DNA of 43,864 bases from a virus (lineage: Duplodnaviria; Heunggongvirae; Uroviricota; Caudoviricetes). Under the pieces are notes generated by a model. It had not been told where the DNA came from. It made no database searches and saw only the letters and a list, made by a program, of their open reading frames with translations. Made by a program: the position numbers and the translations under genes. This document shows positions 307-42,853 of the stretch, one piece after another. Positions within the stretch are counted from its first letter, which is position 1. Every line of letters begins with the position of its first letter. Location: the IMG/VR virus record IMGVR_UViG_2711768005_000008; one strand, written 5' to 3'.

Positions 307-626
307 TCCCGTTACCTTCCGGGATCAAAATTTGGCTGGTTGCCGGTATCACCGATATGAGAAATGGCTTCAACGGCCTGGCTGCGAAAGTACAGACGGC
401 GCTGAAAGACGATCCCATGTCCGGCCATGTTTTCATTTTCCGGGGCCGCAGCGGCAGTCAGGTTAAACTGCTGTGGTCCACCAGTGACGGACTGTGCCTC
501 CTGACCAAACGGCTGGAGCGTGGGCGCTTCGCCTGGCCGTCAGCCCGTGATGGCAAAGTGTTCCTTACACAGGCGCAGCTGGCGATGCTGCTGGAAGGTA
601 TCGACTGGCGACATATAACCAGGTGA
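303..626 (+). CDS. tnpB: IS66-family TnpB (Orf2), probably lacking about 10 C-terminal residues
   Basis: Protein has IWLVAGITDMRNGFNGLAAKVQ / GHVFIFRGRSGSQVKLLW / DGLCLLTKRLE / FAWP, the conserved IS66 Orf2 signature; ORF ends exactly where the Mu-like left-end repeats begin. Confidence 0.8.
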   Translation: MIPLPSGIKIWLVAGITDMRNGFNGLAAKVQTALKDDPMSGHVFIFRGRSGSQVKLLWSTSDGLCLLTKRLERGRFAWPSARDGKVFLTQAQLAMLLEGIDWRHITR

Positions 627-630
627 ATCA

Positions 631-787
631 TTTGATACCGACAAGGGGTTTAGTGAAAGGAGGTGAAATCACCTGTAAGATACTGAAATAAAACAGGTGA
701 TGGCTAGATGTGCGGATAAGGTCTATTTGATACCGATTGTGCAATAATTAGTCATTTATTATAAAATCGGCAACTCATTTGATACTG
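631..787 (+). repeat. Left-end (attL-like) putative transposase-binding repeats: TTTGATACCG at 631-640 and 726-735, TTTGATACTG at 778-787
   Basis: Three direct copies in the first ~170 bp of the element, spaced like Mu L1/L2/L3; inverted copies at the other end. Confidence 0.5.
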
Positions 788-11845: not shown

Positions 11846-11855
11846 GGAAAAAGGT

Positions 11856-12083
11856 ATGGATGATTCAGATTGTGCTCAGGCAGTCATGGAGCGTGCAACA
11901 GAACGCGCCCTTTGTGACCGGCTGACACGTAAGCGCCGGGTGGCGGAGACACCGGGCAGGCGTGTATGCGCGGACTGCGGGGGTGACATTCCGGCTGCCC
12001 GTCTGGTTGCCGTGCCGGATGCCATCCGTTGTGTGAACTGCCAGAACATCATGGAGGCCGGTCATGTGGGTCAGCATCGTTAA
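11856..12083 (+). CDS. TraR/DksA-type C4 zinc-finger protein
   Basis: CADCGGDIPAARL...IRCVNCQ double CxxC; AAGGAAAAAGGT upstream of the ATG. Confidence 0.5.
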   Translation: MDDSDCAQAVMERATERALCDRLTRKRRVAETPGRRVCADCGGDIPAARLVAVPDAIRCVNCQNIMEAGHVGQHR

Positions 12084-12375
12084 AGATTATGTCGTGCCGA
12101 TCCTGTCGGCAACGGCCACAGCCGGGGGGATCTTCATGGCGCTGATGCGCAAAACCTTTGTCCCCCGCGAGGCCTTTGAAAAACTCTCCGACCGGGTTGA
12201 GCGGGTGGAGAGCCGGATTTCCGGCCTGCCCACGCAGCAGGAGGTGAACAGACTCAATATCGAAATCACCACCCTGCGCGGTGAGCTTAAGGCCACCAAT
12301 GCCACCCTGAAATCCGTCTCCCATCAGAACGAACTGCTGCTGGAGCAGGCTGTAAGGAAAAAACACAATGAGTGA
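12064..12375 (+). CDS. hypothetical protein (Mu gp25 position), N-terminal hydrophobic segment
   Basis: ORF, synteny. Confidence 0.4.
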   Translation: MWVSIVKDYVVPILSATATAGGIFMALMRKTFVPREAFEKLSDRVERVESRISGLPTQQEVNRLNIEITTLRGELKATNATLKSVSHQNELLLEQAVRKKHNE

Positions 12376-18841: not shown

Positions 18842-19975
18842 ATGAAGACAGAAAATCACCCAAAAGACGCAAATCGCCCCTCCGGTTTAGCCGTGCTTTC
18901 AGCTTCGCTGACTGCATCCGGCGACGGATGGTGTCAGTTACTGCCAGCCGGTCGGGTAAAGGCCCGTGACGGTCGCCCGGAAAAACCGACTGAAGGCTGG
19001 CTGATTAACGAATCCGCCTGTAACCGGATGAAAGCCGGGCTTTCCGCCCTGCATCAGCCGTTACTGATTGATTATGACCATCACTCCGTGAATGCGCAGA
19101 AAAACGGATTCAAGGCTATTGCTGCAGGATGGGTTAAGCCGGAAAACATCGAATGGCGTGAGGGTCAGGGGATTTTCATTAAACCTGAATGGACACCACA
19201 GGCACAAAAACATATTGATGACCGTGAATATGCCTATCTGTCTGCATATATGCATTATTTCGCTGACACCGGGGAACCCTACCTGTTGCGCATGGCTTCC
19301 CTGACGAATGATCCGGGTATTACGGGTATGAACCCTGTCGCGGCACTCAGTGCTGATGATCTCTATGTCGTTTCCCCTTCTCAGGAGCAATCCCCCATGA
19401 ATGAGCAATTACGCCAGTTGCTGACGGCGCTCGGTCTGACCGTGGCTGACGGTGACGAATTTACACCGGAACTGGGCACGGCGGCGCTGTCTGCCCTTAC
19501 CGGGATCAAAACCCGTGCGGATGCGCACGACACCCTGAAAACGCAGGTTGCCAGCCTGTCGGCAGAACTGGAAACCGCAAAAGGCACACCAACTGGCGGC
19601 ACTATTGATCTGACGAAATATGTGCCCGTTGAGACGTATAACGCCCTGCGTACCGAATATGCCGCGCTGTCGGCACAACACGGCAGCACCACGCTGGAGC
19701 AGTTGCTGGATAAGGCCGAGTCCGAAGGACGCATTTTCAAAAGCGAACGCGGATACATGGAAGGACTCGGACAACAGATTGGCGTCGCGGCACTTTCTGC
19801 ACAGCTTGACGCCCGCCAGCCGGTTGCGGCTCTGACCACTCTTCAGACCGACACCGTAACCGTGCCGGATAAAAAGACCGCCACCGCTGTGCTGTCGGCT
19901 GAAGATATCGCCGCCGCACGTCTGTTGGGTAAAACCGAAGCCGAGTTCCTGAAAATGAAAGAGGAAATGCAATAA
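18842..19975 (+). CDS. Head maturation protease / scaffold (Mu I / gp32-like; possible internal start for scaffold at about 19397)
   Basis: 377 aa immediately before the major capsid gene; Ala/Leu-rich C-terminal half. Confidence 0.65.
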   Translation: MKTENHPKDANRPSGLAVLSASLTASGDGWCQLLPAGRVKARDGRPEKPTEGWLINESACNRMKAGLSALHQPLLIDYDHHSVNAQKNGFKAIAAGWVKPENIEWREGQGIFIKPEWTPQAQKHIDDREYAYLSAYMHYFADTGEPYLLRMASLTNDPGITGMNPVAALSADDLYVVSPSQEQSPMNEQLRQLLTALGLTVADGDEFTPELGTAALSALTGIKTRADAHDTLKTQVASLSAELETAKGTPTGGTIDLTKYVPVETYNALRTEYAALSAQHGSTTLEQLLDKAESEGRIFKSERGYMEGLGQQIGVAALSAQLDARQPVAALTTLQTDTVTVPDKKTATAVLSAEDIAAARLLGKTEAEFLKMKEEMQ

Positions 19976-20922
19976 TGCCTACCCCGATTACACCGGCGAT
20001 GATCACCGCCCTGATGACGGGCTACCGTTCTGATTTTCAGGCCGGGATGTCCATGGCTCCGTCGCAGTACCAGAAAATTGCGATGACCGTGCCGTCCACC
20101 TCGAAATCCAACACCTACGGCTGGCTGGGGCAGTTCCCGCAGTTCCGTGAGTGGATCGGCTCCCGCGTCATCGAGAAGATGAAAGCCTATGGCTACGCCA
20201 TCGTGAACAAAACCTTTGAAGGCACCGTTGCCATTAGCCGCGATGACTTTGAAGACGACAATCTCGGCATCTACTCCCCGTTATTCCAGGAAATGGGTCG
20301 TGCCGCTGCGGCACAACCGGATGAACTGGTCTTTGCTGCACTGCGTGATGGTCTGAATGCGGCCTGCTATGACGGCCAGAACTTCTTTGATACCGAACAC
20401 CCTGTTTACCCCAAAGTGGATGGCTCCGGTGATGCACAGATGGTCAGCAATATGTTTGTGGCAAAAACCGGCTCTGTCGGTGCACAGGCGGATTACAGCG
20501 GCCCGGCCTGGTATCTGCTTGACTGCTCCCGCGCGGTAAAACCGCTGATTTATCAGGATCGCCGCAAAGCCGAACTGGTTGCCCAGACAAAAGTCGATGA
20601 AGGCCGTGCGTTTACTGATAACGAGTTTGTGTTCGGTGCTTCCGCCCGTCGCAATGTGGGCTACGGCTTCTGGCAGATGGCCTACATGATGCAGTCACCG
20701 CTGACGCTGGATGCGCTGTGGCACGGCTGGTCAGCCATGCGTGACTTTAAGGCTGACGGTGGCCGCAAACTCGGCATCAAACCCACCCATATTGTTGTCC
20801 CCACCTCGCTGGAAAAACAGGCGGTGCAGCTGCTGGAGCGCGAGCTGTTCGCAGACGGTAACGCCACAGTCTCTAACGAGATGAAGGGCAAGCTGGAGCT
20901 GGTTGTCGCGGATTATCTGTAA
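19975..20922 (+). CDS. Major head (capsid) protein (Mu T / gp34-like)
   Basis: 315 aa, synteny; start overlaps the I stop. Confidence 0.75.
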   Translation: MPTPITPAMITALMTGYRSDFQAGMSMAPSQYQKIAMTVPSTSKSNTYGWLGQFPQFREWIGSRVIEKMKAYGYAIVNKTFEGTVAISRDDFEDDNLGIYSPLFQEMGRAAAAQPDELVFAALRDGLNAACYDGQNFFDTEHPVYPKVDGSGDAQMVSNMFVAKTGSVGAQADYSGPAWYLLDCSRAVKPLIYQDRRKAELVAQTKVDEGRAFTDNEFVFGASARRNVGYGFWQMAYMMQSPLTLDALWHGWSAMRDFKADGGRKLGIKPTHIVVPTSLEKQAVQLLERELFADGNATVSNEMKGKLELVVADYL

Positions 20923-32255: not shown

Positions 32256-33136
32256 TGTTTCATGTTGATAATAATTCCGGCGTGGCGAATATGCCTGCGC
32301 TGGCACCGGCGCAGAGTAATACCACCACCTGGTTTACCGAAGGTGACGGACAAAAAGGTATCAGCTGGATTGGTCAGGACTGGCTGAATATTCTCCAGGC
32401 CGAACTGCTGAATATTCTGGCTGAAGCCAGTATTCAGCCGGATAAGGCGCAGTTAAACCAGCTTACGCTGTCCATTAAAGCCATTATCGCTGCGAATGCC
32501 TTTTCCCGGAAAAATAACCTGAAAGAAATTGCTGATGCCGGTGCGGAGGCCCAGCGTCTGGCCCGTGGTTATCTTGGTCTGGGGACGCTTGCCACAAAAA
32601 ACAGTCTTGGTCCCGCTGACGTTAATGCCCTGGCGAAGGATCAGAATCTCGCCGACCTGGAGAATAAGGGAACCGCCCGTAATAATCTGGATGTTTACAG
32701 CAAAAGCGAAGGTGATAACCGTTACCTGCGCAGGGAGCAGAACGGCGCAGACATTCCGGATAAAGGGGCTTTTATCGATAACGTCGGTTTACGGGAAACG
32801 GTAAACAGGGCGGCGAATGCCCTGCCATCGGACGGCACCGCCGTTGCCGCGAACAGGCTGGCAAATGCCCACACAATTAATGGTGTTCCCTTTGACGGGA
32901 CGCAGGATATCACTATCTCATCAGGAACAGTAACCGCCATAAGACTGGGGTCGGTGACCGCACATATGCCCGGAACATGGGAAAGCTGGGATCTGAATCT
33001 GGGGGGCGGCAATGTTCTTACCGGAATTAAAGTACAGGATGTCGGTAAGAATACGGCAGATAACGTCGGCGGCGTGTATTACCGGCCGTTGCAGTATCTG
33101 TTAAATGGAGCATGGGTGACGGCTGCAAGTATATAA
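32255..33136 (+). CDS. S: Tail fibre protein S (constant part plus variable C-terminus Sv from 32798)
   Basis: [13 protein letters not shown] motif; the gene is crossed by the left gix-like site at 32772-32797. Confidence 0.8.
32772..32797 (+). promoter_or_regulatory. Left inversion crossover site (gix/hix-like 26 bp): TTATCGATAACGTCGGTTTACGGGAA
   Basis: Matches the gix/hix half-site pattern from memory; inner half TCGGTTTACGGGAA is identical in the right-hand site. Confidence 0.6.
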
Positions 33137-33776: not shown

Positions 33777-34088
33777 TAATTTTTGCAGGGGTCTGAATGC
33801 TATAAAATCGTTTGAAGCATCAACTTTACTGTCAATCTGCAGGCCTGCCATAACATTACCGTACGCAGAGTAATATGCCCCACCGTACATTACCTGCCTG
33901 TTCTCTGCTCCCAGCCTGATATCCTGGATATATCGGGAATCCGCATCCTGCTGTGTTATACCAGAAGTGATGTTTATGTCCTGCGTCCCGTCAAAGGGAA
34001 CCCCATTAATATTTCTTGGGGTGGCGAGTCTATTCGCGGCAACGGCGGTGCCGTCCGATGGCAGAGCATTCGCCGCCCTGTTTACCGT
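33777..34088 (-). other. Sv' - alternative tail-fibre C-terminal coding cassette without its own start, joined to S upon inversion
   Basis: Minus-strand frame continuous from the right gix site: [47 protein letters not shown]...FIAFRPLQN, stop at 33777-33779. Confidence 0.65.
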
Positions 34089-34114
34089 TTCCCGTAAACC
34101 GAGGTTTTCAGGAA
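34089..34114 (-). promoter_or_regulatory. Right inversion crossover site (reverse complement TTCCTGAAAACCTCGGTTTACGGGAA)
   Basis: Outer half TTCCTGAAAACC nearly matches the gix/hix consensus half-site as I recall it. Confidence 0.65.
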
Positions 34115-34179
34115 AGCCAGGATTAACTCTGTTTTATTCCTCATGCGACAATTCCGGCTTTTTATAATAAGGAAATCGT

Positions 34180-34752
34180 ATGCTGATTGGGTATATCAGG
34201 GTGTCAACAAATGACCAGAATACGGCGCTACAAAGAAATGCGCTGGAATGTGCAGGATGTGAGCTGTTTTTCGAAGACAGAATAAGCGGTAAGACAAGGG
34301 AGCGTCCCGGACTTAAACGCGCATTAAAGCGACTCCGGCCAGGGGATACCCTGCTGGTCTGGAAACTGGATCGCCTTGGACGCAGTATGCAGCACCTTGT
34401 CCTTTTAACAGAAGAACTCCGGCAACGCGGCGTTAACTTCCGCAGCATTACGGACAATATTGATACATCCACTCCCATGGGACGTTTCTTTTTCCATATA
34501 ATGGGCGCGCTGGCGGAAATGGAGCGGGAACTCATTATTGAACGTACACGCGCGGGTCTTGCTGCTGCCCGTGCTCAGGGGCGTCATGGCGGCAGACCTC
34601 AGAAACTGACAGAGAAAGAGCGGGAGCAAATCGCCCGTTTGCTGGCTAATGGCGAGTCCCGTAAACAAATCGCACTGATATTTGATATTGGCCTTTCCAC
34701 CCTTTATCGTTATTTTCCTGCCTCACCAGCTCCGTCACCAAAAGTACCGTGA
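34180..34752 (+). CDS. gin: Serine DNA invertase (Gin/Hin/Cin/Pin family)
   Basis: MLIGYIRVSTNDQNT...LLVWKLDRLGRS...C-terminal HTH GESRKQIALIFDIGLSTLYRY; classic resolvase/invertase N-terminal catalytic motif. Confidence 0.9.
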   Translation: MLIGYIRVSTNDQNTALQRNALECAGCELFFEDRISGKTRERPGLKRALKRLRPGDTLLVWKLDRLGRSMQHLVLLTEELRQRGVNFRSITDNIDTSTPMGRFFFHIMGALAEMERELIIERTRAGLAAARAQGRHGGRPQKLTEKEREQIARLLANGESRKQIALIFDIGLSTLYRYFPASPAPSPKVP

Positions 34753-34837
34753 CGCTTTTTTGAATTTCCGCAAAACACATATTTTTCAGCGGTCGCTATT
34801 CTGACTCTGTTTAATTCAGAAACAGGCAGAAAAGACG

Positions 34838-36892
34838 ATGTCAGACTCCAAGTGGAAAATGCTCTCCGCCATGCCCGGAGAGTTTTCAGTCAAGGTTGCC
34901 GGTGGCACGGTGGCATTTATTGAAAGCCCTTTCCGCCCTTCGGGTAATAAAGGGGGGATCACCTTCGCAGACTGCGTGATCCGCTTCAGCACGAAAGAGC
35001 CATTATGGGTAATGCCGGTATCCGGTAATCCCAGTGCAGAAATCACCAGTTCAGGCGTGACTGGCATCATTCCAATCACATCTGACGTGGCCGGAACGCT
35101 CACGCCCTCCGACTGGAATGCACCGGATAACGCCGGGCCTTCCGGTAGCACGAATGGCAGCAGTTCAGAGCCGGAATATTACTTTGTTGTCATTCTCGCG
35201 GGTCAGTCAAATGGCATGGCCTACGGCGAGGGGCTGCCGTTACCGGATTCGTTTGACCGCCCGGACCCACGCATTAAGCAACTGGCACGCCGCAGTACGG
35301 TAACGCCCAACGGTACGTCGTGTACATACAACGACATCATTCCGGCAGACCACTGCCTGCATGATGTTCAGGATATGAGCGGGATAAACCACCCGAAAGC
35401 TGATCTGGCAAAAGGCCAGTACGGGACTGTCGGTCAGGGGTTGCATATTGCCAAAAAACTGCTTCCCTATATCCCACAGAATGCCGGGATACTTCTGGTG
35501 CCCTGTTGTCGTGGCGGGTCAGCATTCACCACTGGAGCCGACGGCTCATTCAGTGAGGCCAGCGGTGCTTCCGCTGATTCTTCACGCTGGGGGGCCGGTA
35601 AACCTCTGTATCAGGACCTGGTAAGCCGCACCAAAGTCGCGCTGGCGAAAAACCCGAAAAACAAACTTCTGGCTGTGGTCTGGATGCAGGGAGAGGCAGA
35701 CCTTGCCTCAGGAAGCCAGCAGCATAATAGTTTATTCACGGCCATGGTTCAGCAGTTCAGAACTGACCTGGCTCCGCTTGCTGCGCAGTGCGTGAGTGGA
35801 AATGCCACCACGGTGCCGTGGATTTGCGGTGATACCACGTATTACTGGAAAAACGCTGGCACCGATAAATATGAGGCAGTATACGGTGGCTACAAAGGCA
35901 AGGAAGCACAGAAAATTTTCTTTGTACCGTTCCTGACGGATGAGAATGGACAGAGCACGCCAACGAATGCTCCGGCGGAAGACCCGGATATTGTGGCTGT
36001 CGGGTATTACGGTGCAGCATCCCGAACCCAGGGCAGTTTTGTTTCGACACAGCGTGACAGCCATTTCAGCTCATGGGCACGCAGGGGCGTCATTTCAGAC
36101 CGTCTGGCCTCAGCTATTATGCTCCATGCAGGGCGCACGGCTGAACTGATGCGTGGGCAGACCGTGACACCACCGGATGAGAAGCCGTCACCTGATACAC
36201 CATCAAAACCGTCCACGCCACCCGCAGACACCACGACGATGAGTACGCTATTTGCTTACCGGGCATCTGAGTCTGAAGGACGGTTGACACCACAGGGTTG
36301 GGCTGCCGGAGGTGGCAAGGCTCAAATCGTGGATGATGCCGGAGCCAGCGGGGGTAAGGCAATGAAACTGACCAAGGAAACAGGAAGAGCCCCCTGGTAC
36401 CTTGAGCATGATGCTGGTAATGGTGCGGACCTGCTGGGTAAAGGTGGTCTTGTCAGTTGTCGTTTTAAACTCGATGGCGCGCTTACGGCTAATCAGTACG
36501 CACTGGCGCTGTACTGGCCGGTTTCTGCCCTGCCGCAAGGGGTTACTCTGGAAGGAAATGCCGGTCATAACCTGCTGGCATCGTTCTACGTACAGAGCGA
36601 TGCCACAGACCTTAACGTGATGTATCACAAAGGAAACACGGCGCAGAACACGAAGCTGGGGTCATTCGGCGCATTTAATAACGAATGGCATACGCTGGGC
36701 TTCCGTTTTGCCGGTAACAACAGTATTGAGGTGACGCCGGTCATTGATGGTAAGGACGGGACACCATTCATGCTGTCGCAGTCTCCGGTCGGCACGTTTA
36801 CGGCAGACAAGTTGCGCGTGACCGATATCACTAAAAATGCGACTTACCCGGTACTGATTGACAGTATCGTGGTGGAAGTGAATAACGCGTAA
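34838..36892 (+). CDS. SASA/SGNH-hydrolase-family carbohydrate esterase (sialate O-acetylesterase-like, NanS-p-like) with N- and C-terminal extra domains
   Basis: GQSNGMAYG nucleophile motif (residue ~125), VVWMQGEADL block, later DSH; 684 aa; sits between gin and com/mom, where Mu has no gene. Confidence 0.6.
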   Translation: MSDSKWKMLSAMPGEFSVKVAGGTVAFIESPFRPSGNKGGITFADCVIRFSTKEPLWVMPVSGNPSAEITSSGVTGIIPITSDVAGTLTPSDWNAPDNAGPSGSTNGSSSEPEYYFVVILAGQSNGMAYGEGLPLPDSFDRPDPRIKQLARRSTVTPNGTSCTYNDIIPADHCLHDVQDMSGINHPKADLAKGQYGTVGQGLHIAKKLLPYIPQNAGILLVPCCRGGSAFTTGADGSFSEASGASADSSRWGAGKPLYQDLVSRTKVALAKNPKNKLLAVVWMQGEADLASGSQQHNSLFTAMVQQFRTDLAPLAAQCVSGNATTVPWICGDTTYYWKNAGTDKYEAVYGGYKGKEAQKIFFVPFLTDENGQSTPTNAPAEDPDIVAVGYYGAASRTQGSFVSTQRDSHFSSWARRGVISDRLASAIMLHAGRTAELMRGQTVTPPDEKPSPDTPSKPSTPPADTTTMSTLFAYRASESEGRLTPQGWAAGGGKAQIVDDAGASGGKAMKLTKETGRAPWYLEHDAGNGADLLGKGGLVSCRFKLDGALTANQYALALYWPVSALPQGVTLEGNAGHNLLASFYVQSDATDLNVMYHKGNTAQNTKLGSFGAFNNEWHTLGFRFAGNNSIEVTPVIDGKDGTPFMLSQSPVGTFTADKLRVTDITKNATYPVLIDSIVVEVNNA

Positions 36893-36907
36893 GCAGGATA
36901 AAAAAAT

Positions 36908-36940
36908 GCCGCCGGTAAGGGAAAACAAGAAACCGGCGGC
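36908..36940 (-). terminator. Stem-loop GCCGCCGGT-N15-ACCGGCGGC, with T-run on the minus strand (A-run upstream on plus)
   Basis: Perfect 9-bp stem; likely terminates minus-strand transcription and possibly the esterase transcript. Confidence 0.4.
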
Positions 36941-37024
36941 AAAAAGATCGTTATATCCAAAGCAAAAAATGCAGTGCACCTTTTTACCTAACAGATATTA
37001 CCGGTGTCAACACCATGTCAATAA

Positions 37025-37219
37025 TTGGGAGGGATAATGACATTTTTACAGCTTATTTTATTGTATTTCTGCACGGCAGTATGTGCGTTATATCTGGTGA
37101 GTGGTGGTTATAAGGCCATCAGAAATTATGTTCGCCGCAAAATTGAGGACGCAGCAGCTGAAAAACTCAGTAAAACAGCGCAGGTAACTCCGCTCCCAAA
37201 AGACCCGACCCAGCCCTGA
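37025..37219 (+). CDS. hypothetical small membrane protein
   Basis: Hydrophobic N-terminus FLQLILLYFCTAVCALYLV. Confidence 0.3.
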   Translation: MGGIMTFLQLILLYFCTAVCALYLVSGGYKAIRNYVRRKIEDAAAEKLSKTAQVTPLPKDPTQP

Positions 37220-37254
37220 TTGCAGGGCTTTATTCCCGCATAAGGAGGATATAC

Positions 37255-37509
37255 ATGCCAGAAATTAAAGGCACCGTCACTGAAGACCTGGTAAAACAGG
37301 CACTGTATTCCGGTGAAGTAAATAAGTTGCTGAAAGCGCAGGTCCGCAAGGATTTTGAGGCACAAATCGACACTTACGTTGATGAAGTGCTGGCAAAACT
37401 TATTGGGCCAGCAGTTGCGGCCAGTGATGCTGATAATGAGCCGAAAACCGACGCGCAGCCAGAGCAACCAGACCCGGCTCAGCCCGGAACTGACAGTACC
37501 ATGATGTAA
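37255..37509 (+). CDS. hypothetical protein, acidic/proline-rich C-terminus
   Basis: ORF with AGGAGG RBS. Confidence 0.4.
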   Translation: MPEIKGTVTEDLVKQALYSGEVNKLLKAQVRKDFEAQIDTYVDEVLAKLIGPAVAASDADNEPKTDAQPEQPDPAQPGTDSTMM

Positions 37510-37676
37510 CAATACAAACCGGTGGTGTCCTCTGCCGGTTTGACACTAATGAAAACATCTTTGCCGCTATCCAGCCATATGTAATCGCTGGATAGTATTT
37601 CGTATTCAGAAATATAGCTGCTTATGGAGCAGTCAATCCTGCTTCCCCATCCGGGCAGGCAAATGAACCGGTATCA

Positions 37677-37970
37677 TTAGTCCGATTCACGCTTTTGTAG
37701 AATCGTTCCCAGAATGCTATACAGCTCATTAGCCTGTTGCTCCATCATTGAGACGGAGGCTATACGGTGCAAAGTGATTTCAGGAGGTGGCACACCTCCA
37801 TCTTCTTGCTGTGGAGGAAAAACATAAGATTTAATAAAAAAGTTGAAGCATATGAACTCTCCCGCACTCGAACTGTATTTGCAGGCATCTGAATAATCGG
37901 AAAAATAATCATTATAGATTTCCGCATTTTCAATCATTTTTCGATTTCTCGTCGTTACATGATTGTCCAT
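37677..37970 (-). CDS. hypothetical protein (minus strand, AT-rich - likely horizontally acquired)
   Basis: 97-aa ORF, lower GC than the surrounding phage genes. Confidence 0.35.
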   Translation of the reverse strand: MDNHVTTRNRKMIENAEIYNDYFSDYSDACKYSSSAGEFICFNFFIKSYVFPPQQEDGGVPPPEITLHRIASVSMMEQQANELYSILGTILQKRESD

Positions 37971-38093
37971 AGCAGCCTCTTACGCTGGCAATTAACCAAT
38001 TGACTTCTATAAATTAGTTGATTTGTTTGCTTTGCGGTATTCAAATGTACAATCATTCAGCACTTATGCGTTACAGCACCGTTTAAAATTAGT

Positions 38094-38179
38094 GATCAAA
38101 CTCATAAATTTTCGCTAATGACATTTCGTGTTATTTGTTGTATCAATTAAATAAATCAAATCGATCGTTTTTGTCGATC
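38094..38179. promoter_or_regulatory. Cluster of three GATC (Dam) sites upstream of com/mom (38094-38097, 38163-38166, 38176-38179)
   Basis: Resembles the Dam/OxyR-controlled mom promoter region of Mu. Confidence 0.4.
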
Positions 38180-38226
38180 GATTGAGTGATAAAGATATCA
38201 ACAACAAAGCAGGAGGTTATGCGGCC

Positions 38227-38427
38227 ATGTATCGAAACATACGGTGCCGACATTGTAACAAGCTACTGGCACGAGCCAGCTTCAGTTATCTGGAAGTTAA
38301 ATGTCCGCGCTGTAAAACCCTCAATCAAATCACATCTCAGAGCGCCACAGAGCACCCCACATACACAAGGAAATCCTGTCGTGGGGAACAGAAAGCAAGT
38401 TACATCCCGTATCATCAGCACGCCTGA
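38227..38427 (+). CDS. com: Com-like zinc-finger translational activator of mom
   Basis: [10 protein letters not shown]...EVKCPRCK with the same C4 arrangement as Mu Com; overlaps the mom 5' end. Confidence 0.7.
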
Positions 38428-39118
38428 ACTTATTCACTATAACGACAATATCGTCGGTTATGGCTCCCGTGAGTTACGGGTTGAGACAATAAGTTGCTGG
38501 CTGGCCCGGCTGGTCGTCGTCAATAAACATTACAGCCATCGTTTCGTAAATAATTCCTACCTTCATCTGGGCATATTTTCAGAACGGGAGCTGGTTGGCG
38601 TAATGCAATGGGGTTATGCCCTTAATCCAAACAATGGTGCACGCGTCGTAACTGGCACGCAGAACCGCGAATATATGGAGCTTAACCGGTTATGGCTGCA
38701 TGACTGTATGCCGAGAAACTCCGAATCAAGGGCAATCAGTTACGCGCTCAAACTAATCAGACAACTTTATCCGCAGGTGCAGTGGGTTCAGTCGTTTGCA
38801 GATGAGCGTTGTGGCTGTCTTGGTGTCGTGTACCAGGCAAGCAATTTTGATTATGTAGGCAGTCATGAAACAACATTCTATGAACTTGATGGCGAGTGGT
38901 ATCACGAGATTTGCAAGAATGCAATCAAACGAGGAGGACAGCGAGGTGAACATCTGCGGGCTAATATCGACAGAGCCAGTGTTCATAAATTCCGTCAGTT
39001 TCGTTACATCCGGTTTCTGGACAAGAGAGCCAGAAAACGCCTTAACACAAAGCTATTCAAAGTCCAGCCTTACCCAAAACCACAAACAGTTAAAACTGGT
39101 TTGAAAGAGAGTGAATGA
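38381..39118 (+). CDS. mom: Mom-like DNA modification protein (start codon uncertain; frame open from 38186, GTG 38381 proposed)
   Basis: Last gene before the right end, overlapped by com, preceded by the GATC cluster. Confidence 0.6.
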
Positions 39119-39163
39119 ACGCTTAAAAACTCATTCTAAAACTCAAAAGAAAAGCGCCGATTT

Positions 39164-39229
39164 AGTATCAAATAAGTTGCGTATCGGCGTTTTTCAGCGG
39201 TATCAAATGAAATGCAAATCGGTATCAAA
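39164..39229 (-). repeat. Right-end (attR-like) repeats: inverted copies of the left-end motif (AGTATCAAA 39164-39172; CGGTATCAAA 39198-39207 and 39220-39229)
   Basis: Reverse complements of TTTGATACCG clustered within 65 bp after mom. Confidence 0.5.
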
Positions 39230-39336
39230 AAAATCGCCGCGCTATAGACAGCCTAAGCGGCTGCTGACCTCCCTGACCATGCTGTAAATCTCTTTATCCT
39301 GGTTGTCACAGAATAAGCCCGGTAAAATACGGGCTT

Positions 39337-39795
39337 ATGAACGACATCTCTTCTGACGACATCTTCCTGCTGAAACAGCGCCTTGCCGAACGTCAGTTGA
39401 AAACGAAACCGCTGCTGAAATCCCTGGAAAGCTGGCTGCGTGAAAAGATGAAAACCCTGTCGCGACACTCAGAACTGGCGAAAGCGTTCGCATATGCCCT
39501 GAACCAGTGGCCGGCGCTGACGTACTATGCAGATGATGGCTGGGCTGAGGCGGACAATAACATCGCTGAAAATGCGTTGCGGATGGTCAGTCTGGGCCGC
39601 AAAAACTACCTGTTCTTCGGTTCGGATCATGGAGGAGAGCGGGGAGCGCTGCTGTACAGCCTGATCGGGACGTGCAAACTGAACGGAGTGGAGCCAGAAA
39701 GCTACCTCCGCTATGTCCTTGACGTCATAGCCGACTGGCCGATAAACCGGGTCGGCGAACTGCTCCCCTGGCGCGTAGCACTGCCGACTGAATAA
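39337..39795 (+). pseudogene. tnpC: IS66-family transposase TnpC, C-terminal fragment only (N-terminal ~two-thirds absent)
   Basis: ...MKTLSRHS.LAKAFAY.L.QW.....Y...GW.E.DNNIAENALR....GRKN.LF.GSD.GGE..A.LYSLIGTC.LN.VEPE..LRYV...I.DWP.NRV..LLPW matches the IS66 TnpC C-terminus. Confidence 0.75.
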
Positions 39796-39797
39796 CA

Positions 39798-39832
39798 CAT
39801 TCCCGTCAATACGGTTCTTGCTGCACGCTTAC
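39798..39832 (+). repeat. Probable IS66 right terminal inverted repeat (ends ...CGCTTAC)
   Basis: IS66-family IRs begin 5'-GTAA (recalled, not checked); the downstream tail-fibre frame is open right up to this point. Confidence 0.4.
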
Positions 39833-41021
39833 GGTAAACACCCCGGAAGTGGTGATGCACACTGTTGCTGATGTGATGACAGGAAACGATGGTGAATACT
39901 GTTTCCATGCGCGGACTGGAAAATATGGTGTGTATCTGAAACCGGGCTGGCACAACGAGTACAACGTTGGCGACATTGCTGTATACGACGACTCAAAGCC
40001 CGGCACGCTGAATGACTTTCTGATTGCTCCTGATGAGGGCGACCTGAAACCGGATGTCGTCAAACGCTTTGAGGAAATGGTGGCGCAGGCGCAGCAGAGC
40101 GCCGGGGCCGCAGCCGGAAACGCACAGCAGACGGCGCAGGATGTGGCGGCAGCCGCAGGTTATGCCCGCGCAGCAGAGCAGGCCAAAAATGACATTGATG
40201 CTGCGCTGACCGGCACTCTGAAAACGGCTAACCATCTGTCTGAAATCGCAGCAGCAGGCGAAAAGGCACAACAGAAGTCCCGGGATAATCTGGGGCTGAA
40301 AAGTGCGGCCACGATGGAAGCACAGAGCGACATTTACGACCGGACAAAAGGCCGTCTGGCGATACCCGGCGCATTCGGCTTTGGGTGTGCTTTTCTGCCT
40401 GAAGATGTTATCCGTTTTGACACTAAGAGTGATTTCCTGGCCTGGGTAAGGAATGCGCTGCCAGGTGAATATTCCGTTGCTGGCCCCTACGACATCATCA
40501 TACCCGACACACGGTTTGAAGGGGTGCTCAGCATCCGGTGGACTGATGCACGCCCTGAGACAACAGAACCGAGGTACAGAGCCAAATCCCTTACTTTTTA
40601 CGGCATTAACGGCCCCATTTATCACACCCGCTACTGCTACTGGCCCATATCCAGACTGACTGGCTGGGTGAAAATAAATATAACCACAGAAGATATTATT
40701 TACAGAATCGTGGCGAGCTCTGTCTGCAACAGATGGGGAGACCCTGACATTGGCGGGCTGATTATTGCTGCGTACCAGGGAGAAGCTGACGGTGATAAAG
40801 TCATCAGACTTGTCAGGGGGCAGTCATACAGAGGCTCACGACTGGGACCGGTGGGGATTTCAGTGCCCAGTACTCCCACCGGAACGTATATAGCATCCCC
40901 ACAATTTTTCATTACGGGATGTTCAGAGCATTCATTACCGGGGTCATATAGCGCCCTGTCCGGGGTGCCGGATGCTCATGTCTCTGGCGCAATGCCCGGG
41001 CTTTTTATTCGCACATCGTGA
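39833..41021 (+). pseudogene. Tail fibre gene, 3' portion (5' part displaced upstream by the IS66/Mu-like insertion)
   Basis: Frame is open from the IS boundary with no plausible native start; Ala/Gln-rich shaft region then a C-terminal globular part; followed by a putative tail-fibre assembly gene. Confidence 0.55.
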
Positions 41022-41031
41022 GGAATGCACC

Positions 41032-41595
41032 GTGGAAATTAAAAAAATCATTAATCCCCGTTATACCGAAAGTGGCGCAGTAGACTGTGACGTTTTTTTT
41101 GACGACAGGGACCAGGCAGTCCCCTACACAGCCACCGCTGATGATGTCGCACCGACGGGTCAGCGAATCTGGCAGGAACTGCAAAGTGGCAAATGGGGTG
41201 AGATAGCCCCATTCACTGTGACACCAGAAATGCTGGAAGCGGCCAGAGAGGCCAGACGTCAGGAAATTGAAGCATGGCGCACAGAACAGGAGGCGAAGCC
41301 GTTCACGTTTGAATGGAATGGTCGTATCTGGAATGCTGGCCCCGACTCACTGGGCCGCCTGTCCCCGGTAGTCATGCTGGCAAAATCTGTCACAGCACAA
41401 ACGCATATGGCGTGGGGTGATGCCGATAATCAGCAGGTGAAACTGTCGATGCCGGAACTGGAAGAACTGGCGGCAGCAATGGTGCAGGCGCAGGTCGATC
41501 GCAACGATGAGATTTATCGCCGTCAGCGTGAAATGAAAGAGGAGCTGAGTGGTCTGGAGGATTTGGGAACAATTAGAGCGTTTGATGTTACGTAA
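41032..41595 (+). CDS. Putative tail fibre assembly / tail-fibre-associated protein (start ambiguous: 40972, 40978 or GTG 41032)
   Basis: Position immediately downstream of the tail fibre; AGGAA before GTG 41032. Confidence 0.45.
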   Translation: MEIKKIINPRYTESGAVDCDVFFDDRDQAVPYTATADDVAPTGQRIWQELQSGKWGEIAPFTVTPEMLEAAREARRQEIEAWRTEQEAKPFTFEWNGRIWNAGPDSLGRLSPVVMLAKSVTAQTHMAWGDADNQQVKLSMPELEELAAAMVQAQVDRNDEIYRRQREMKEELSGLEDLGTIRAFDVT

Positions 41596-41644
41596 TTGGT
41601 AAGCTGCATCGTGTTAAATTGTTACCCTTATTTACAACTAGAAA

Positions 41645-41676
41645 AGCCTCTGACTTCATAATCAGAGGCTTTTTTG
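41645..41676 (+). terminator. Rho-independent terminator (GCCTCTGA-loop-TCAGAGGC followed by TTTTTT)
   Basis: Perfect 8-9 bp stem plus T-tract about 50 bp after the tfa-like stop. Confidence 0.55.
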
Positions 41677-41793
41677 AAATGCACGTGCATTTTGCGTGTA
41701 TATTTTTGTCTTTTTCTGGTCCGCTTACTGTCTGGTCAGTGTCCGTAAGTGACTGTTTTTATAGTCTCTGTCCGGTTGCAGTCCTGTCAAAAG

Positions 41794-42156
41794 TGGTGGA
41801 GCTGGCGGGAGTTGAACCCGCGTCCGAAATTCCTACATCCTCGGTACTACATGCTTAGTCAGTCTTTACATTCGCTTGCCAGCTGCGGACGGACACGCCA
41901 CTAACAAACTAGCCTGATTAAGTTTTAACGCTTCAACCCCAGGCAGGGCTTCCACGCGATCTCTTTTGGGTTTGACCTCTCTTGATCCCCGTCCTAAGAG
42001 CGGAGGCTAGGGAGAGAGGGCTCTAAGCAGGTTATTAAGCTGCTAAAGCGTAGTTTTCGTCGTTTGCGACTATTTTTTGCGGCTTTTTACGAGGCCAACC
42101 GCCCCTCGGCATGCACCTTGGGTTTCGCAAATCCCGTCGAATCCAGAATCAGCCCC
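41794..42156 (-). ncRNA. ssrA: tmRNA (SsrA), 363 nt
   Basis: 5' GGGGCTGATTCTGGATTCGACGGG, tag ORF GCAAACGACGAAAACTACGCTTTAGCAGCTTAA (ANDENYALAA-stop), 3' end ...GGGTTCAACTCCCGCCAGCTCCACCA. Confidence 0.95.
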
Positions 42157-42370
42157 AATGTGTAAAGGTAAGTATACCAGATTTATGAGCGCCATGACCA
42201 GCCTCAATGGCGTTATCGTTAAAGATTTAGCACCCATGTAGCCTGATTTTTATTCGATTAAGCAATGGGATGGCAACATTTGTGTCGGATGTGATAGCCA
42301 ATAAGATGTTCATTCGCGCCGCCGGAGAGGGAGGCGCGGTGAGGAACTGGTCAATAATTGGAGTGCAGGT

Positions 42371-42853
42371 TTAACGGTGGGCGTTTTTCATGATACGTGC
42401 TTTATCCACCTGCCATTCGCGTTCTTTGATATCTGAACGTTTATCGTGCTGTTTTTTACCTTTGGCGACGCCGATTTTCACTTTGCACCAGGCATTTTTC
42501 CAGTACAGGGAGAGCGCCACTACGGTATAGCCTTCTCGATTGACGCGACCGTACAATGAGTCCAGTTCGCGCTGGTTGAGAAGTAACTTGCGGGTACGGG
42601 TAGGATCGCACACCACATGCGTGGAGGCCACGGCCATTGGCGTGATGTTAGCGCCAAACAGAAATGCCTCTCCGTCACGCAGAAGGACGTAGCTGTCGCT
42701 GATATTGGCTTTTCCTGCGCGCAGGGATTTAACTTCCCAGCCTTGCAGGGCAAGTCCCGCTTCGAACTCTTCTTCGATAAAGTATTCGTGACGGGCGCGC
42801 TTGTTAAGCGCGATGGTCGCTGAACCAGGTTTATGTGCTTTTTTCTTCGTCAT
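42371..42853 (-). CDS. smpB: SsrA-binding protein SmpB
   Basis: 160-aa protein [29 protein letters not shown]... in the conserved position upstream of ssrA. Confidence 0.9.

Follow-up and report, generated by a model that had tools for sequence, protein, structure and literature searches.

The stretch of DNA analysed here is a viral record of 43,864 nucleotides (IMG/VR record IMGVR_UViG_2711768005_000008), which is called the window below, and our subject is a large esterase gene near the right end of the prophage that it contains. The element is a Mu-like transposable prophage which occupies approximately positions 614-39246, and its ORFs (open reading frames) correspond one to one with genes annotated in the Sp18-type prophage of Escherichia coli O157:H7, namely those for the Mu-type transposase, B ATPase, Mor, gpT major head (19975-20922 in the window), sheath, tube and baseplate. 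An earlier note, made by a model from the sequence alone, had placed an ORF of 684 amino acids (aa) between gin and com/mom, and this ORF indeed runs uninterrupted from ATG to TAA at 34838-36892 on the plus strand. The premise of the note that Mu itself has no gene at this place was correct too, because gin (35092-35673) and com (from 35768) are separated by only 94 bp in Mu (NC_000929). The gene, its parts and the genes at the two edges of the inserted block are as follows.

34180-34752, plus strand: gin-type DNA invertase, left edge of the inserted block (Pfam Resolvase and HTH_7)
34838-36892, plus strand: NanS-p-family esterase gene, Mu-type variant (ATG-TAA ORF, 684 aa plus stop; Pfam, PHROG and PDB matches)
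34838-35107, plus strand: Mu-like-prophage-specific N-terminal domain, aa 1-90, which replaces DUF1737 (all-beta, cupin/jelly-roll-like, without histidine)
35108-35173, plus strand: linker 1, acidic and rich in Ser, Gly and Pro, aa 91-112 (from composition and a blastn breakpoint at 35168-35170)
35174-36127, plus strand: catalytic SASA/SGNH domain, aa 113-430 (aligns to NanS 3PT5; GQSN with S124, WMQGE, RDSH with H409)
36128-36241, plus strand: linker 2, rich in Pro, Thr and Ser, aa 431-468 (from composition, and low pLDDT, the predicted local distance difference test, in the full-length model)
36242-36889, plus strand: C-terminal lectin-like jelly-roll domain (DUF6645), aa 469-684 (aligns to the NanS-p C-terminal domain 6YP6)
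38227-39118, plus strand: com (38227-38427, PF10122) and mom (38381-39118, PF25680), right edge of the block (Pfam)

The earlier note had proposed a NanS-p-like O-acetylesterase of the SASA/SGNH type with extra N- and C-terminal domains, and the database searches bore this out. The profile search that it had suggested placed the Pfam SASA family (PF03629) on aa 117-312 with 51.3 bits against a cutoff of 24.8. This match was partial (profile positions 4-157 of 226), yet the whole core was covered by the alignment with E. coli NanS (YjhS, PDB 3PT5), to which aa 110-428 align end to end (E 1.8e-117). Pfam DUF6645 (PF20350) matched aa 533-650 with 226.5 bits against a cutoff of 27 (E 7.4e-68), and the crystal structure of the NanS-p C-terminal domain (PDB 6YP6) was matched by aa 469-683 (E 7e-98). 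The whole protein was assigned to phrog_143 of PHROGs (E 1.7e-296). A tblastn search of 50,697 phage records matched 349 of them, almost all from Shiga toxin (Stx) phages or other lambdoid phages, and the identity to L0105 of phage 933W was 65% over aa 94-683. The three motifs named in the note were located as well, GQSN at aa 122-125, WMQGE at aa 282-286 and DSH at aa 407-409. The last one, noted as "DxH", is part of RDSH (aa 406-409), which is the form of the last SGNH block (block IV) of the NanS type. The blocks of NanS-type SGNH enzymes have been defined as GQSN with the nucleophile Ser, QGE and R-x-S-H, and the final block reads RSSH or RASH in published NanS-p alleles (PMC10462455). Ser124 and His409 are the putative catalytic centre in the SGNH/SASA core. 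For the C-terminal domain of vb_24B_21 of phage phi24B, a sugar site formed by Y510, Y515, Y540 and F611 has been proposed (PMC10462455), and all four residues are kept here as Y554, Y559, Y584 and F654.

The ratio of nonsynonymous to synonymous substitution rates (dN/dS) against two other Mu-type alleles was 0.09-0.18 over the catalytic and C-terminal domains (0.09-0.12 for the catalytic and 0.13-0.15 for the C-terminal domain), and the reading frame was intact in all alleles examined, which had 679-692 aa. All nanS-p alleles tested from EDL933 and O104:H4 were active on Neu5,9Ac2 and mucin glycans (PMC8065619). We therefore have high confidence, by homology, that the gene product would be a functional sialate O-acetylesterase of the NanS-p kind.

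Compared with NanS, the protein has the core in common, including the GQSN, QGE and R-x-S-H variants of the motifs. NanS is exported to the periplasm. Unlike NanS, which is a single domain of about 326 aa, the window protein is phage-borne, carries additional N- and C-terminal domains and is without a signal peptide, as no hydrophobic N-terminal segment was found when we looked for one in the esterase. Its closer likeness is to NanS-p (L0105, also z1466, of 933W; vb_24B_21, also gp84, of phi24B). Both have the SASA/SGNH core followed by the lectin-like DUF6645 domain, both lack a signal peptide, and both are followed by a hairpin after the stop codon and by DUF1378 and DUF826 genes; the identity is 65-68% to 933W and reaches about 91% to other lambdoid alleles. 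There are two differences. The N-terminal DUF1737 of NanS-p is missing in the window protein, in which a longer and unrelated all-beta domain stands instead, and the element that carries the gene is a transposable Mu-like myovirus with the block between gin and com, not between Q/stx and holin.

The N-terminal domain was also analysed on its own. The 120 retrieved homologues fell into two clean N-terminal classes, namely a DUF1737 class, which begins with MAFKHYD and has about 55 aa before a linker, and a Mu class, which begins with MSDSKWKML and has about 90 aa before a linker. DUF1737, which the earlier note had listed among the families to look for, was not the window protein's N-terminal domain, because PF08410 gave no match on aa 1-112 even at E ≤ 10. 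No other Pfam family matched the Mu-class segment at E 10 either, the PDB gave no sequence match, and the only PHROG match was below threshold. An exhaustive HMMER search of 1.84 billion representatives yielded, besides pieces of these esterases, only one protein with 29% identity (P0006). P0006 is an esterase start, cut off by the end of its contig, from a Mu-like prophage of Salmonella enterica, and a gin-type invertase lies just upstream of it. Word-index protein searches with the single sequence and with a profile gave only same-esterase fragments and this Salmonella protein again, and no relative was found when the N-terminal patterns were scanned across one genome per species. By these searches, the Mu-class domain occurs solely on esterases of Mu-like prophages in E. 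coli/Shigella and Salmonella. AlphaFold gave a usable model for the N-terminal domain by itself and not for the full-length protein (pLDDT 52, shallow alignment). The predicted fold of the domain is all-beta, while DUF1737 consists of a helix and three strands, and fold searches with this model gave generic cupin or small-barrel likeness and no functional lead. The dN/dS of the domain was 0.04 against the CI5 allele and 0.20 against the M3 allele; against the O157 allele dN was 0.29 and dS was saturated. This analysis showed that the N-terminal domain is under purifying selection.

Comparison of alleles showed that the rest of the protein, which is called the enzyme body here, follows the phage type less closely than the N-terminus does. 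The window body was about 91% identical to some DUF1737-type lambdoid alleles and 85-99% identical to other window-type Mu alleles, but only 68% identical to the O157 Mu-type body, and the latter was closest to 933W (78%). At the same time, the window-type N-terminus was 97-100% identical among alleles with bodies that differed by up to 15%. Because the body identities cross phage types and the N-terminus is conserved, bodies must have been swapped between Mu-like and lambdoid phages at least twice. The breakpoint could be seen in the DNA: blastn against two lambdoid loci (L009 and L010) gave 87-88% identity over about 2 kb, starting at window 35168-35170 and stopping within the DUF1378 gene. 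The start corresponds to codon 111, which is the boundary of linker 1 and the NanS-like core. As judged from these alignments, the enzyme body recombines between lambdoid and Mu-like phages and the N-terminal module stays with the phage type. Two DUF1737-type proteins (P0042 and P0049) were considered as products of the Mu-like prophages of strains M3 and M1 and rejected, as their loci are separate lambdoid prophages there.

The second Mu-type allele is that of the O157-type (Sp18) cassette. It has the same order of gin, esterase, DUF1378, DUF826, reverse ORF, com and mom and the same N-terminal family, but the esterase is only 61% (N-terminus) to 73% (C-terminus) identical, whereas the head genes are 96-98% identical. 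By sequence, the O157 type is a different allele of the whole cassette. A related esterase was also observed in the P2-like phage vB_EcoM-569R5 (Peduoviridae; L008, 4770-6020), in which it sits after the lysis genes, and a P88-like record names its copy as DUF1737-containing. With the related copy in P2-like phages, the esterase occurs in at least three phage architectures.

The exchanged DNA is larger than the esterase gene. The earlier note had let one gene fill the slot between gin and com, and this did not hold, since genes for DUF1378 and DUF826 proteins and a reverse ORF of 97 aa are located there too. The features between the esterase stop codon and com are the following.

36900-36941, no strand assigned: A7 run and 10-bp GC-rich hairpin, right after the esterase stop (fold-energy z -4.5 and -4.8)
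37037-37219, plus strand: DUF1378 small membrane protein, 60 aa from the RefSeq start, second gene of the block (PF07125, E 1.2e-31)
37255-37509, plus strand: DUF826 small acidic protein, 84 aa, third gene of the block (PF05696, E 6.4e-16)
37677-37970, minus strand: 97-aa ORF in the AT-rich spacer between DUF826 and com (no library match)

The same trio of esterase, DUF1378 and DUF826 lies between the Q antiterminator and the holin in the lambdoid loci L009 and L010. A DUF1378 homologue follows L0105 in 933W, and both small genes follow the esterase in four Mu-like loci (L001, L003, L005 and L006). DUF826 and DUF1378 ORFs between nanS-p and S have been described (PMC10462455). In the window, the block stands between gin and com of the Mu-like element, with no Q or holin nearby. 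The DUF1378 protein has one hydrophobic helix (Kyte-Doolittle maximum 2.27), and the single PADLOC match of the region was a sub-threshold one of the DUF826 protein to PbeC (E 0.0076, 12.9 bits). The 97-aa reverse ORF had no match in Pfam, PHROGs, NCBIfam, PADLOC or the phage tblastn search. In the O157-type prophage this ORF is lacking and its place is taken by an unrelated one with a frameshift, so the spacer before com appears to be a variable cargo slot.

On its minus strand, the element at 36900-36941 is a hairpin followed by T7 and resembles in shape an intrinsic terminator that points into the esterase gene; the plus strand is without a T-run. A hairpin stands at the corresponding place after the stop in 933W, the O157 Mu-type, M3, CI5 and two lambdoid loci; the stem sequences differ from one to another, and the two arms still pair in each. 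Terminator consensus matches over 34000-39300 were at or below chance, and no Rfam family was found in the region. A suspected gin terminator at 34740-34800 was rejected, as it folds no better than shuffled sequence. The sole TTAT-N6-ATAA of the window, which has the shape of a Mu C site, lies at 37230-37243 between DUF1378 and DUF826; it was rejected as a C-activator site because it was not significant (at least one match in 29 of 100 shuffles) and is poorly placed for a promoter. No such sequence was found upstream of com. Three GATC sites upstream of com (38094, 38163 and 38176) are clustered as in the Dam-regulated mom control region of Mu.

To estimate how common the cassette is, we searched 5,426 complete E. 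coli genomes, to which all genome counts refer. The 5.1-kb stretch from gin to mom was essentially complete in 25 genomes. The coding segment of the window-type N-terminus was present in 28 genomes at ≥90% identity, and that of the O157-type allele in 205, so that about 233 genomes had a Mu-type N-terminus, and the com-mom right end of this prophage type was likewise found in 233. Because the two counts agree, practically every prophage of this lineage has the esterase. The placement that the earlier note called unusual is so relative to Mu itself, but having the esterase is normal among the Mu-like prophages of this E. coli lineage. Among the carriers is the Sp18-type prophage of O157:H7, which has long been known; Sp18 of strain Sakai has been predicted to be intact (PMC2669165). 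The insertion sites differ, being IS66 orfB in the window, gspM in AST198, flgL in M3 and a truncated gene next to xdhB in CI5. Another insertion of an identical or closely related cassette was inside a lambdoid tail region, and one genome had three copies. By automatic annotation, databases label the protein "DUF6645 domain-containing protein" or "sialate O-acetylesterase". The Mu-type esterase variant is already in databases and, to our knowledge, undescribed in the searchable literature.

Taken together, the gene is probably a sialate O-acetylesterase of the NanS-p family in an exchangeable block, with an N-terminal module that is specific for the phage type. From the relatives we infer its activity, substrate and time of expression as well as the role of the N-terminus, as follows. 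The enzyme would be made in the cytoplasm during lytic growth and, having no signal peptide, would be released or exposed on particles at lysis, by analogy with the lambdoid alleles. It would then remove O-acetyl groups from 9-O-acetylated sialic acids of mucin glycans, to which the C-terminal lectin domain would direct it, and the freed sialic acid could be used by the surviving lysogen population. The Mu-type N-terminal barrel would do a job that belongs to this phage type only, and the most plausible candidates are docking to the Mu-like particle or assembly of an oligomer. For phi24B, gp84 (NanS-p) was reported as an abundant virion protein, a capsid decoration protein that is proteolytically processed, and its DUF1737, in hexameric form, binds within the central hexons of the T=9 capsid (bioRxiv 10.64898/2026.04.10.717836). 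Since DUF1737 anchors gp84 in the phi24B capsid, the N-terminal module can be considered as the part that meets the phage.

Several results weigh against this reading as a whole or against its anchoring part. Over 34000-39300, a promoter consensus scan gave no convincing promoter upstream of the esterase (4 sites against 5.8 expected), and no site of the Mu C-activator type was found upstream of the gene. No paper that connects nanS-p or sialate esterases with Mu-like phages was found in the searched literature (Rangel 2016, Saile 2016 and Feuerbaum 2018 lay outside it). With regard to anchoring, the N-terminal domain is only 61% identical between the window type and the O157 type, against 98% for the major head protein, 97% for the portal and 96% for the tube, which is unlike the prediction for a tight interface with a conserved capsid lattice. 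DUF1737-type esterases in turn accompany several head types, namely those of lambdoid phages with different terminase and portal families and of P2-like Peduoviridae, so one N-terminal type can go with more than one capsid.

The last two results bear directly on the reading in which the esterase is virion-borne, with the Mu-type barrel docking it on the Mu-like head or tail and the enzyme serving mainly the phage, either in adhesion to and passage through O-acetylated mucus or by stripping O-acetyl from a surface polysaccharide to bare the receptor. Exactly the domain that anchors gp84 in the phi24B capsid is the one replaced here, and the replacement is restricted to Mu-like prophages, is under purifying selection and is retained while bodies are swapped. 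The gene also comes after the tail-fibre module, from which the earlier note had argued for virion association; this position is weak evidence, and the lambdoid capsid-decoration homologue would be the better argument by analogy. But the replaced domain is also the known lambdoid anchor, which is precisely what is missing in the window protein, and the fold searches with the N-terminal model found no likeness to known decoration or tail-accessory proteins. Together with the divergence of the N-terminus between lineages with nearly the same head and the several capsid types of DUF1737 alleles, this makes a virion-borne enzyme rather unlikely. SGNH esterases that act on surface glycans from the virion do exist, such as the tailspike esterase gp63.1 of phage G7C and the haemagglutinin-esterases of influenza C virus and coronaviruses, integral proteins that bind or destroy receptors and whose place on the virion is proven. 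Their likeness to the window protein is in concept only, that is, an SGNH-fold O-acetylesterase on a particle together with a lectin-like domain. In its widest form, the docking idea would have lambdoid podo- and siphoviruses, P2-like phages and Mu-like phages share one enzyme body, each with its own docking module, and would make the Mu barrel a virion-attachment domain; we regard this as a tentative proposal with the odds somewhat against it. If it were true, the particles of Mu-like phages from gut E. coli and Salmonella would interact with mucus.

The barrel might also have nothing to do with the virion and act in oligomerisation or, as a second module for carbohydrate binding, adjust the avidity or specificity of a soluble enzyme released by lysis. 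We consider this unlikely to about the same degree, as it does not account for the restriction of the domain to Mu-like prophages and its absence from lambdoid alleles despite repeated body exchange, and as the protein already has a dedicated lectin-like domain. Finally, the gene could be a decaying passenger that came from a lambdoid prophage by illegitimate recombination and has no function in the Mu-like phage. Its GC content of 0.53-0.55 is slightly off the 0.58-0.60 of the neighbouring tail genes, and the adjoining slot is variable. However, a passenger is highly improbable in view of the intact frame in every allele examined, the strong purifying selection on every domain and the conserved catalytic and sugar-binding residues. 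Furthermore, essentially all members of the lineage, inserted at many sites, carry the gene, as does a Mu-like prophage of Salmonella in which the N-terminal identity is 29%. The preferred reading is that of a NanS-p-family esterase with a phage-type-specific N-terminal module.

The enzyme itself is of a known kind, and what is new here is the architectural variant with a Mu-type N-terminus in a different phage class. NanS-p esterases have been discussed as fitness- and virulence-associated factors of Shiga-toxin phages, and the family now reaches transposable Mu-like prophages, whose carriers make up about 4% of complete E. coli genomes and include O157:H7, O111 and O121 Shiga toxin-producing E. 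coli. Counts of nanS-p per strain which rest on the DUF1737 architecture or on the lambdoid context will miss the Mu-type copy. The body swap with its breakpoint exactly at a domain boundary is a clean natural case of modular exchange at the level of domains. The distinctive part is this swap and not the ordinary enzyme: a replacement domain at the position of the DUF1737 anchor provides a direct and cheap experimental handle for asking if such esterases are carried on particles in general, a matter relevant to what the esterase does for the phage itself.

The surroundings of the block and the ends of the prophage were analysed as well. To the left of gin is an invertible G-like segment flanked by inverted repeats of 86 nt that are 93% complementary (32777-32862 and 34024-34109). 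In the M3 and CI5 derivatives (L005 and L006, approximately 11850-12150), gin and one arm of the segment have been lost and approximately the last 70 nt of gin are fused upstream of the esterase. These gin-less derivatives still retain the esterase block.

The right end of the prophage is at 39246, as the window and the otherwise identical AST198 prophage part immediately beyond this position, and the left end is near 614. Both host flanks read through as one IS66 orfB, so the insertion was a clean transpositional one. In the joined frame across the junction (window 560-700 and 39200-39340; IS66-family orfB), IDWR on the left is followed directly by QPKRLLTSLTML and a stop codon on the right. 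GACA is present at both junctions, and no clean 5-bp duplication of the target could be established. To the right of the prophage, a C-terminal fragment of an IS66 transposase (39337-39795) was followed by a truncated lambdoid tail-fibre gene (39849-41021) and a tail-fibre assembly gene (40972-41595). Beyond these tail-fibre remnants are the ssrA gene for transfer-messenger RNA (41794-42156, minus strand) and then smpB. The region 39337-42853 looks like a degraded ssrA-integrated prophage that was entered by IS66 and then by the Mu-like phage.

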